From assembly GCF_041248615.1 (NCBI RefSeq), contig NZ_CP158426.1: a stretch of 64,000 nucleotides of DNA; one strand, written 5' to 3'. Of the stretch, positions 16,102-18,800 are shown piece after piece; the stretch's first letter is position 1; each line of letters begins with the position of its first letter. Source of the DNA: Escherichia coli. GTDB lineage: Bacteria > Pseudomonadota > Gammaproteobacteria > Enterobacterales > Enterobacteriaceae. The notes under the pieces are model-generated. The model ran no database searches, was not told the DNA's origin, and saw only the letters and a list, made by a program, of their open reading frames with translations. Position numbers and translations under genes: made by a program.

Positions 16102-16344
16102 TTACCCTGAACTGACGATACAACAAAGGCGCAACGCTTTTGAGATAAAGGATCGATGCTTTCACTGCTTTTACCCTCTACCATTAGGCTAATTGCGACG
16201 AGAAAGGGACGACCTATGAATACTAACGTTTTTCGACTGCTCCTGCTGGGAAGCCTGTTCAGCCTTAGCGCCTGTGTGCAGCAAAGCGAAGTGCGACAGA
16301 TGAAACACAGCGTCAGCACGCTGAACCAGGAGATGACGCAACTC

Positions 16345-18092
16345 ATTGACATCCTCCACGCCCTGAAGGACGTGGATCCCTGCTACGTTCAGGCTGTCGC
16401 CTGAATCATTTCGGTGGGTTCCTGCTTCAACGGGCGGCCTGACTGCACCATCCCTCCACAGGCAAGAACGGCGTGCCCCGCCGCTAAAATGTTACGAGCG
16501 CCATTTACATCGGCGTTCGCTGTATATCCACATACCTGGCATCTGAATTTACTTTGTGACAGGCGATTTTCTTTCGCTGTATGACCACAGCACGTGCAAC
16601 GCTGGCTTGTGTACGCTGGCGAAACAGCAAGCACCTGACCGCCACGCCAGAGCTGCTTGTACTCAAGCTGGCGGCGCATTTCATACCAGCCCTGATCCAG
16701 TATCGAACGGTTTAAACCTGATTTTGCCCGGACATTGCGCCCCGGCTGGCTGACCGTACCCGCTGCTGACTTTGACATGTTGCTGACCTTCAAATCCTCA
16801 ATGACTATCATTGCGTGGTTTTTGCTGACGGTCGTTGTGACTTTGTGAAGGTAGTCCCTGCGGATATTTGCGATACGGGAATGCAGTCGCTGTATTTTGC
16901 GTTTCTGCTTCTGCCAGTTGTTGCTGAATTTGACCTTGCGGCTTAACTGTCGCTGAAGTCTCGCCAGCGTCTTCTGGTTTTTCTGAAAACTGTTTACAGG
17001 CTCAAAGACTGTGCCATCTGACAGCGTGGCGAGTTTAGCCACGCCAGCATCCAGCCCGACCATTGATGCTGAAGGGTGAACCGGAGTTGATACTTCACTT
17101 TCTGTCTGAATACTGATGTGCCACTTACCGCAGGACTGGCTGACCGTGACATTTTTCACAACACCCGTGACCTGACGGCTATTCCGGTAGCGCATCCAGC
17201 CCAGTTTCGGCAGAAAAATACGGCTGTTTTCCTGATCGAGCTTAACGCCCTGCGGGTAGCGGAATGCATCATTCTGTCCCCGCTTTTTGAATCGGGGAAA
17301 AGCAGCCCGCTTCTGGAAGAAGTTTTTGTAAGCCCGCTCAAGGTCTTTCAGTGACTGTTGCAATGGCTGTGACGGGGCATCTTTAAGCCATTGCGTTTCA
17401 GTGGCATTTTTCCACTCAACCAGCCAGGAAGCCATTTTCCCGTAAGGGATGTATTTATTACCGGCCTCATGATTCTCATTCTGAAGCGCCAGAGCACGAT
17501 TGAAAACGAAACGACATGCGCCTGCGAAGCGCCTCATTTCACACTCCTGTTGACCACCTGGTCTTAACTGGAATTTAAATGCCTGTAATCGTTTCACAGG
17601 TCAAATGATACTTTGGTCTATGAAAAAAGAAACCGATATCCGGCGTGGAAGGCATTGTGTTTTCCTGATGCATGTTCACCTGGTCTTTGTCACCAAATAC
17701 CGACGCCAGATTTTTGACCATGACGCGACAGAAAAACTACGCACTTACTTTTCAAATGTATGTGCTGATTTTGAAGCTGAACTGGTTGAAATGGATGGCG
17801 AACCAGATCACGTCCATTTGTTAATTAACTATCCTCCCAAACTGGCGATATCCAGTCTGGTAAACAGCCTCAAAGGCGTATCGGGTAGGTGACTGCGACG
17901 AGATCGACCAGATATTGCAGTCAGGTATTACTACAAAGGCGTTTTGTGGAGTCCTGGCTATTTTGCCAGTAGCTGCGGAGGTGCGCCAATATCCGTCATC
18001 CGCCAATACATTGAACAACAGCAAACACCTGGTCAGGTGGAAAACCGCGCCTTATATCCCCGCCCTGAAGGACGGGGTTTTACGGCGCACCG
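16345..18092 (-). mobile_element. IS200/IS605-family insertion sequence (divergent tnpA/tnpB), boundaries approximate
   Basis: HuH (Y1) transposase gene plus TnpB gene; similar subterminal hairpins near both ends (16356-16375 CCACG-CCCTGAAGGA-CGTGG; 18058-18077 CCCCG-CCCTGAAGGA-CGGGG); no terminal inverted repeats. Confidence 0.75.
16389..17597 (-). CDS. tnpB: TnpB (IS200/IS605 OrfB; RuvC-like RNA-guided nuclease family)
   Basis: 402-aa ORF; N-terminus ...AFKFQLRPG...RFVFNRAL typical of TnpB; C-terminal CxxC...CxxC zinc finger (CTCCGH...CQVCGY) and RuvC-III-like NGARNI. Confidence 0.85.
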
Positions 18093-18132
18093 GATAAAGA
18101 AACAGTCAAAATCACTCAGCAAAACAGGCTGA
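17605..18132 (+). pseudogene. tnpA: IS200-type HuH transposase TnpA with in-frame TGA at 17890-17892
   Basis: N-terminal part has HuH motif (DHVHLLI); same frame continues after the TGA with the C-terminal tyrosine region LWSPGYFASSCGGAPISVIRQYIEQQ; frame reads past the element end into yajI. Confidence 0.7.
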
Positions 18133-18800
18133 ATGCAAAATCCAGCAGTGGGGTTTACCTTCTGCCTGGAGCGAAAACACCAGCAAGACTGGAAAGCCAG
18201 ATCGGTACTTTACGTATGTCGCTGGTGAATATTACGCCTGATACAGATGGCACCACCCTGACGCTACGTATTCAGGGCGAGTCGAATGATCCCTTGCCCG
18301 CATTCAGCGGAACTGTTGAATATGGGCAAATTCAGGGAACAATAGACAACTTTCAGGAAATCAATGTGCAGAATCAATTGATTAACGCCCCTGCCAGCGT
18401 CCTCGCCCCCAGCGATGTTGATATTCCGTTACAGTTAAAGGGTATTTCTGTGGATCAGTTAGGCTTTGTACGTATCCACGACATTCAACCTGTTATGCAG
18501 TAAACGTTTCGCGGGGCGTTTTGTGCGTCCCGCAACATCTTTCCCCGTCATTTTGTTACTCTGCTTACATCACCCAGATTGATAGTAAAAGTTTGCAACA
18601 AGGGTGAAAGTCAGTACAATCCCCGCCCGAATGTGTGTAAACGTGAACGCAATCGATTACGTAAATGATAGAACTGTGAAACGAAACATATTTTTGTGAG
18701 CAATGATTTTTATAATAGGCTCCTCTGTATACGAAATATTTAGAAACGCAATTTGCGCCTTTTTCACTCCCGCAAGGGATTTTCAAACAGTGGCATACAT

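Follow-up and report, generated by a model that had tools for sequence, protein, structure and literature searches.

A complete IS609 in Escherichia coli yajI with a dead transposase gene, an intact tnpB and a predicted omega-RNA matching the uninterrupted gene

Analysis of a 64,000-nucleotide stretch of the Escherichia coli contig NZ_CP158426.1 (the window; all coordinates refer to it) reveals a complete copy of the insertion sequence IS609 at 16346..18093 on the minus strand. The element, a member of the IS200/IS605 family with divergent tnpA and tnpB genes, lies inside yajI, which codes for a lipoprotein, immediately 3' of a TTTAT motif. In our assessment this copy probably unites a dead transposase gene with an intact tnpB that is under purifying selection, and with an omega-RNA (the guide RNA of TnpB nucleases) that is aimed at the uninterrupted form of yajI.

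The element is 1748 bp long, with its left end at 18093 and its right end at 16346 in element orientation, and shares 1719 of 1748 nucleotides (98.3%) with the IS609 of E. coli K-12 (NC_000913.3 1503161-1504908), which has the same length and identical termini. Alignment to the empty yajI site of K-12 places the insertion point between 16345 and 18094, and the break points of the BLAST matches across the junctions agree with these boundaries. Deletion of 16346-18093 restores the empty yajI site exactly, without target duplication. Read on the minus strand, the left end of the element begins directly after TTTAT and the right end closes with GGAGGATGTCAA, followed by the yajI sequence TGAGTTGCGTCATCTC. 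The copy shows the characteristics that define the IS200/IS605 family, namely insertion 3' of a fixed motif, subterminal hairpins at both ends (the left one, CCCCGUCC-UUCA-GGGCGGGG, at 18058..18077 on the minus strand) and the remnant of a Y1 transposase gene. The interrupted yajI consists of a 5' fragment at 16218..16345 on the plus strand, which is the source of the predicted guide, and a 3' fragment that resumes at 18094 and ends at 18503. An earlier note on this DNA, written from the letters and open reading frames without database searches, had taken the flank to be the 5' fragment of yajI, and the alignment to the empty K-12 site bears this out.

The tnpB gene (insQ) occupies 16389..17597 on the minus strand, starts with GTG and codes for 402 amino acids in an uninterrupted open reading frame, as the earlier note had stated. 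Pfam domains cover the protein from the helix-turn-helix region (HTH_OrfB_IS605, residues 1-48, E=4e-13) through the RuvC domain (OrfB_IS605, residues 162-277, E=1.6e-34) to the Cas12f1-like TNB/Zn ribbon (residues 304-370, E=9.4e-24). With the NCBIfam model guided_TnpB (NF040570) the protein reaches 386 bits, where the cut-off is 100, which places it in that family; the narrower 'exception' model NF038281 (IS200_TnpB) gives 307 bits, under its cut-off of 425. The best natural relative with a solved structure is the TnpB of ISDra2 (8exa/8bf8/8h1j; E=2.7e-56). Comparison with this characterised protein, a check that the earlier note had called for at the RuvC catalytic positions, finds the triad unsubstituted: D183, E267 and D363 align with ISDra2 D191, E278 and D361. 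The two zinc-finger motifs reported earlier, CTCCGH and CQVCGY, are both present, and their cysteines C334, C337, C353 and C356 align with ISDra2 C331, C334, C351 and C354. The catalytic residues of the window TnpB are intact.

A search for similar proteins gave only near-identical E. coli sequences, which are of no use for covariation; diversity was therefore sought by a scan of one-genome-per-species contigs, from which 63 related loci with TnpB identities of 30 to 95% were taken. An alignment (A2) of the last 230 nt from 32 sequences yielded a consensus structure with RNAalifold, which was curated to 38 pairs in seven helices. From 25 homologues, with all Escherichia and Citrobacter sequences excluded, we built a covariance model (R1, alignment A3), the kind of search that the earlier note had proposed for finding a scaffold. 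R1 matches the window over its full length at 16346-16470 on the minus strand with 143.1 bits (E=8e-36), and its only other match in the 64-kb window is a weak one of 13.6 bits to the left-end hairpin (18058..18077). In every related locus, including 19 that were unused for building, the model matches the 3' end of tnpB on the tnpB strand.

The proposed pairing is well separated from its controls. Over the 38 pairs, 95% of the cells are paired; in controls with the 3' partners shifted by one to three columns, the share drops to 41-53%. Double-sided changes occur at 15 pairs (56 cells), and the shifted controls show 4-7 such pairs (4-12 cells). In 500 column shuffles, no observed structure measure was reached even once. 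G-U pairs make up 15% of the paired cells and the antisense strand would pair in only 80%, which assigns the structure to the tnpB-sense strand. The presence of a conserved, covarying structure of the omega-RNA type on the tnpB strand, at the 3' end of tnpB and the right end of the element, is thus supported. An omega-RNA region had been placed by the earlier note at this end of tnpB and on the minus strand; covariance model, covariation and the synonymous constraint described below all uphold it. The extent given then, from about 16550 down to 16345, was right in strand and place and too long at its start, as the core runs from 16470 to 16346, with a weakly supported extension to 16511.

Numbered from the right end, with 16346 as -1, the predicted scaffold core is 125 nt long (-125 to -1; 16346..16470, minus strand, as for all helices below) and overlaps the last 27 codons of tnpB, its stop codon and the 43-nt right end. 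Helix 7 is the right-end hairpin UCCACGUCC-UUCA-GGGCGUGGA (-31 to -10; 16355..16376), which is the equivalent of ISDra2 stem 4 and also the DNA hairpin that TnpA would recognise. It is seen in every right-end locus compared, with five pairs changed on both sides and 94% of cells paired. Helix 6, the hairpin UCAGGC-GACA-GCCUGA (-59 to -44; 16389..16404), contains the tnpB stop codon (16391-16389) and is the weakest of the helices, with two double-changed pairs and 89% of cells paired; a Photorhabdus/Klebsiella subgroup folds otherwise here. It was retained for its parallels with the HgcC model and with ISDra2 stem 3, and a small helix from RNAalifold that competes with it (A2 columns 215-217 with 227-229) was dropped. 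Helices 3-5 form a RAGATH-18-like stem 1 (-117 to -76; 16421..16462) with an outer CCUGU:GCAGG and inner GGG:CCC and GGU:GCC pairings, in which the pair G16453:C16433 is replaced by A:U in E. coli strain 7/2. Helix 2 is an upstream hairpin, GCGGCG-GGGCA-CGCCGU (-139 to -123; 16468..16484), inside the tnpB coding sequence. With 98% of its cells paired, it shows covariation between synonymous third positions, the alanine codon GCG occurring with the histidine codon CAC in 12 sequences and GCA with CAT in 19.

Helix 1, proposed by RNAalifold, is a candidate long-range, pseudoknot-like pairing of GAUGU (-166 to -162; 16507..16511) with AUGUC (-7 to -3; 16352-16348). It is invariant, without covariation, and its GAU is the codon of the catalytic Asp363. 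As for other pseudoknot partners, an ISDra2-like one in the loop of stem 1 (GAUG, -106 to -103) was rejected, since it would share nucleotides with covarying pairs and G also occurs in column 146, and the alternative UGA at -83 to -81 was judged unproven.

Y1 transposases of the IS200/IS605 family, such as those of IS608 and ISDra2, use the right-end hairpin and a TCAA cleavage site as single-stranded DNA, and the left end of the present element has a near-identical hairpin. Conservation at the 3' end of tnpB might on these grounds reflect DNA-level needs of the transposase (right-end hairpin, cleavage site and internal guide) instead of an RNA. We consider this very improbable. Constraint and covariation reach about 125-140 nt inward, far more than the 45 nt or so that a right end requires, and include helices that have no counterpart at the left end. 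Conserved G-U pairs are frequent, the constraint continues in lineages whose tnpA is dead, and the module resembles, at a sub-threshold score, the RAGATH-18 consensus, a proven core of TnpB guide RNAs (PMC11061315).

Codon evolution in tnpB points in the same direction as the pairing. Among 18 co-linear homologues, synonymous codon differences are about 0.4-0.5 over most of the gene and fall to 0.21 and then 0.115 across codons 371-400, where amino-acid divergence climbs to 0.24-0.29 while synonymous divergence drops 3-4 fold. Codons 361-402 have a pairwise synonymous divergence (dS) 3-5 fold below that of codons 2-360. Low dS together with high amino-acid divergence is the signature of an overlapping RNA that would dominate a dispensable protein tail. 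In 35 of the 63 related loci the terminus GGAGGATGTCAA is followed directly by unrelated sequence, and a conserved end with variable sequence next to it is the behaviour expected of a scaffold/guide junction. A second dip in synonymous divergence was observed at 16788-16877 (tnpB codons 241-270; 0.20-0.24 as against about 0.45), with the invariant stretches GACTACCTTCACAAAGTCA and AGCAAAAACCACGC..ATGAT.GTCATTGA around the E267 codon; candidate causes are a promoter within the gene, an RNA element and biased codon use.

The scan of related loci also returned 5'-truncated elements in which only the last 35-100 codons of tnpB are left, in a Citrobacter (L055), Escherichia whittamii (L059), a Photorhabdus (L063), a gammaproteobacterial metagenome-assembled genome (L065) and an Arsenophonus (L066). 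All five still have a full-scoring scaffold and right end (R1 99-139 bits), and in the Citrobacter locus a second, weaker and inverted R1 match adjoins the first.

As the end of the transposon is exactly that of the scaffold, the predicted guide begins at 16345. Its length is set at 16 nt by analogy with ISDra2 (PMC10097598), which gives the predicted guide 5'-UGAGUUGCGUCAUCUC-3' at 16330..16345 on the minus strand, taken from the yajI 5' fragment directly outside the right end. The earlier note had the guide in the right fragment, at about 16328-16344, one base away from the position found here (16345 to 16330). On the other side of the element, the predicted transposon-associated motif (TAM) 5'-TTTAT-3' abuts the left end at 18094..18098 (minus strand). 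In about 20 related loci the left-end flanks are TTTAT, TTTAC, CTTAT, CTTAC or ATTAT, and from this consensus we predict the TAM as TTAY, mostly TTTAY. Within the window the guide sequence occurs once, as its own template, preceded by GTCAA instead of a TAM; a second target was looked for in the window and not found.

A natural target of the predicted guide exists, since the exact 44-nt core of the empty site (TAM and target) occurs in 28 of 5426 complete E. coli genomes; the empty yajI site rebuilt with TTTAT is matched in NZ_CP018957.1 with 100% identity over 160 nt. In a further 1861 genomes the 44-nt target core carries a one-base difference, counted irrespective of its position. The yajI gene is polymorphic at the predicted TAM, the insertion allele and the 28 empty genomes having TTTAT (Asn-Lys in YajI) and K-12 having TTGAT (Asn-Gln). 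The commonest empty yajI allele, which is of the K-12 type, thus differs at the TAM.

These features are consistent with the following course of events, in which we infer the transcription and processing of the RNA, the guide length, the TAM specificity and the cleavage. By analogy with ISDra2, the tnpB transcript would extend beyond the right end into yajI, with its 3' portion folding as the omega-RNA scaffold (16470 to 16346) and the next 16 nt or so (16345 to 16330) acting as the guide. The complex of TnpB and omega-RNA would then recognise and cut 5'-TTTAT-TGAGTTGCGTCATCTC-3', that is, yajI without the insertion, whether as the empty site or as the product of excision. DNA matching the guide at the occupied locus would escape cutting because it follows the element end GTCAA and not a TAM.

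The transposase gene has not been kept in the same way. The tnpA pseudogene (Y1/HUH transposase; 17605..18093, plus strand) contains an in-frame TGA at 17890-17892, at a codon that is Leu in relatives (comparison with 11 relatives, TnpA ...LKGVSSRLLRRD...RQYIEQQQTPG*), and its normal stop is lost, the codon now being CAG (18034-18036) and the frame running beyond the element. The remnant keeps the HVHLL and RQYIEQQ motifs and scores 104 bits with NCBIfam transpos_IS200 (NF033573) over its N-terminal part; RefSeq marks it as 'internal stop; incomplete'. The statement in the earlier note that the transposase is defective is confirmed by the TGA, the lost stop and the RefSeq pseudogene annotation. 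With its Y1 transposase gene inactivated, the window copy is, as judged from its sequence, immobile by itself. IS609 tnpA with Leu in place of the TGA is found in 1759 records.

Comparison with the yajI::IS609 alleles of three other E. coli genomes (loci L068, L069 and L070) reveals that tnpA has been disabled by different lesions. In Nord58 the codon at 17890-17892 is Leu (TTA), but tnpA carries Y76* (17832 T>A), and tnpB is complete. P19_598 and 7/2 (L070) both have a 1-nt deletion at 17692 in tnpA; tnpB is complete in the former and has a stop at codon 386, in the C-terminal tail, in the latter. There are thus three different disabling tnpA lesions among four alleles, and the core of tnpB is open in all four. 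Between the window and P19_598, whose flanks are about 2% apart, tnpB shows 10 synonymous and 9 non-synonymous changes, a ratio of non-synonymous to synonymous polymorphism (pN/pS) of 0.26 (binomial P=0.004 against neutrality), and family-wide the corresponding divergence ratio (dN/dS) of tnpB is 0.04-0.28. The RNA region of strain 7/2 contains four changes: two form a compensatory G:C to A:U replacement in stem 1, one is C to U and keeps a G-U pair, and one lies in a loop. The loop change (UCA>UGA) creates the stop at codon 386, so that TnpB ends at residue 385. Since tnpB stays open and changes preserve pairing while tnpA lesions recur, tnpB and the RNA appear to have been conserved at an immobile yajI locus during repeated decay of tnpA, with gene conversion as a caveat.

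Strain 7/2 has a further, partial IS609 in the yedF-ybcM region (L067; NZ_CP023820.1 2203411-2204248), with a tnpA annotated as intact (174 aa) and a truncated N-terminal fragment of tnpB. It shares the genome with the yajI::IS609 of dead tnpA and live tnpB, and trans-complementation by its tnpA is conceivable in this strain.

Several observations weigh against a working guided nuclease at this locus. Even at permissive thresholds no Rfam family matched the window at its gathering score, and the fold of the single sequence surpasses shuffled versions by no more than a modest margin (z=-2.2). Covariation in the right-end hairpin is not specific to RNA, since TnpA needs this hairpin as DNA, and the invariance of helix 1 could be explained by constraint on the protein. 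The selection signal within E. coli comes from about 20 substitutions, and gene conversion among IS609 copies could blur it. No second IS609 exists in genomes identical to the window, which leaves the nuclease without any transposition to support. A simple promoter scan found no minus-strand sigma-70 site upstream of tnpB, and scans for promoters and terminators yielded no convincing candidate for either tnpB or the RNA. In the relatives compared (L006-L049) a conserved TATAAT stands exactly 7 nt before the tnpB ATG, an arrangement that suggests a leaderless or near-leaderless tnpB mRNA, whereas in the window and K-12 copies the hexamer is TATCAT (17610-17605 in the window) and the start codon is GTG (17597-17595), so that tnpB may be weakly expressed.

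Two further features touch on expression. The starts of tnpA and tnpB are only about 7-22 nt apart, which places the promoter of each inside the other gene. A terminator-like hairpin, CAGCGTGCTGACGCTG followed by TGTTTCATCT, lies at 16308-16323 (minus strand), 22 nt past the right end and antisense to yajI; it is a chance feature of the flank and may determine where a read-through transcript ends.

The degraded -10 box and start codon, the lack of a promoter-like minus-strand site, the dead tnpA and the lack of a further IS609 in the closest genomes would all fit a silent relic, whose reading frame and scaffold are intact because the insertion is young or has been refreshed by gene conversion, the system itself being unexpressed or inactive. 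Within E. coli, pN/pS is 0.26-0.33, above the 0.04-0.11 seen between genera, which also agrees with such a relic. When nine TnpB candidates including that of 'IS609' were purified, only SfaTnpB was reported as notably active and the IS609 protein was not singled out (PMC12781874). The alleles themselves argue otherwise: lineages with flanks about 2% apart and three separate tnpA lesions have kept tnpB open in four alleles, with a significant deficit of non-synonymous changes (P=0.004), and the RNA-region changes of strain 7/2 keep the pairing. We therefore regard a silent relic as unlikely, and prefer a tnpB and a predicted omega-RNA that are maintained and directed at uninterrupted yajI.

The genes surrounding the element are E. 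coli ribD, nrdR, the yajI fragments and tsx, and the RefSeq records identical to the window list insQ ('RNA-guided endonuclease InsQ/TnpB family protein'), a pseudogene of tnpA, and yajI (DUF3251) in two fragments. Nearly all of the 5426 complete E. coli genomes contain IS609. The yajI::IS609 junction is found in 340 of them (about 6%) and the yajI site is empty in 5084; genomes identical to the window carry the yajI copy as their sole IS609.

Purifying selection on tnpB at an immobile locus and the presence of IS609 tnpB in almost all E. coli genomes could be taken to mean that the host has recruited TnpB for RNA-guided regulation or defence and that the protein has ceased to serve the element. 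TldR-type regulators are nuclease-dead derivatives of TnpB, and a derivative of this type is ruled out here, as both the catalytic triad and the element ends are intact. Recruitment in any form seems to us the least probable of the explanations considered, since the RuvC triad is unlike that of nuclease-dead TldR, the guide is plain flanking yajI sequence as in an unmodified transposon, ends and TAM are canonical, and the yajI locus occurs in only 6% of genomes.

It is tempting to view the occupied yajI as a self-preserving allele, in which the fixed IS609, kept since the loss of its transposase, would act through its TnpB, still under purifying selection, and its omega-RNA against the ancestral empty TTTAT allele of yajI, destroying or converting copies that arrive by recombination or horizontal transfer. 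This idea is tentative and we do not expect it to hold. If true, the 340 occupied genomes as against 28 with the exact empty target would be explained.

As a discovery the element carries little weight, because IS609 and InsQ are already catalogued (the K-12 tnpB is annotated as 'putative RNA-guided DNA endonuclease InsQ'), the RefSeq name exists and the mechanism of TnpB and omega-RNA is established in relatives. A literature search for IS609 or insQ combined with TnpB found no functional study of the element. Its practical use lies in precise positions, a model of the structure and the predicted TAM (TTTAY) of an IS609 omega-RNA that is unannotated in Rfam and in genome records. About 6% of complete E. 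coli genomes would carry a native TnpB, predicted to be functional, against a defined chromosomal sequence present in other E. coli. The polymorphism between occupied and empty yajI offers a natural system for studying TnpB-mediated element retention in a model organism, and the contrast of broken tnpA with conserved tnpB and RNA at one orthologous locus illustrates how TnpB may outlive its transposase.

Among the closest known systems is the K-12 IS609 (insQ/ydcM b1432 and yncK), which has in common with the window copy the length of 1748 bp, the TTTAT left flank, a GTG-started TnpB of 402 amino acids and a tnpA with the same TGA and the same stop loss. However, the K-12 copy is located between ydcL and ydcO and not in yajI, so that its guide would be TATCGGTTTCTGTCAG in place of TGAGTTGCGTCATCTC, and its TnpB differs by 12 amino-acid changes. 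Stem 1 of its RNA (L003 6785-6909) contains an A.C mismatch (GAG opposite CCC) that is absent from the window copy, whereas strain 7/2 has a compensated GAG/CUC at this place.

The TnpB of ISDra2 from Deinococcus radiodurans (PDB 8EXA/8H1J) belongs to the same protein family (408 as against 402 amino acids) and has the same triad and zinc finger. In its omega-RNA the scaffold measures 116 nt and comprises stems 1-4; stem 4 bears a tetraloop at -20 to -17, nucleotides -5 to -3 engage in a pseudoknot, and the scaffold overlaps the disordered C-terminal domain of TnpB (PMC10097598). The predicted IS609 RNA resembles it in a scaffold of about 116-125 nt up to the right end, a terminal tetraloop hairpin near -20, a 3' end in ...CAA before the guide and overlap with a poorly conserved C-terminal tail of TnpB. 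The two differ in the RAGATH-18-like stem 1 of IS609, in its pseudoknot partner, which is a candidate only, and in the TAM, which is TTGAT in ISDra2 and is predicted as TTTAY here. The structure of the IS609 RNA is predicted from sequence, and the tnpA and tnpB of the element are divergent, an IS605-type organisation.

Three Rfam families gave matches with E<0.5 in the window, all of them sub-threshold leads on the minus strand at the 3' end of tnpB: RAGATH-18 (RF03064; 16419-16462), HgcC (RF00062; 16333-16456) and sot0042 (RF02656; 16355-16516). RAGATH-18 is the experimentally proven core of the guide RNAs of IS607 TnpB and co-occurs only with IS607 TnpB (PMC11061315); the similar module is found here in an IS605-type element with a Y1 transposase. 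Compared with the omega-RNA (reRNA) of the IS607 element ISFba1, the outer helix and its flanks agree in almost every letter, CCUGUGGAGGG...CCCGUUGAAGCAGGAA here corresponding to cCUguGGAGuG...CaCGaUGAAgcAGgAA. Owing to a shorter inner stem (17 nt as against about 44), the match nevertheless scores 28.1 bits and falls short of the gathering score of 44.9. IS607 elements have a serine recombinase where IS609 has a Y1 (IS200/IS605) transposase, and their reRNAs do not overlap coding sequence, whereas the predicted IS609 RNA overlaps tnpB.

HgcC and sot RNAs, known from archaea, overlap the 3' ends of tnpB genes. Their scores here are far under threshold (23.8 bits against a gathering score of 50 for HgcC and 17 bits against 88 for sot0042), which leaves the IS609 RNA outside both curated families. 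Nevertheless, they lie in the same place and on the same strand as the predicted scaffold, and both the right-end hairpin and the GGAGGAxGUCA tail of the IS609 RNA align well to the HgcC model.

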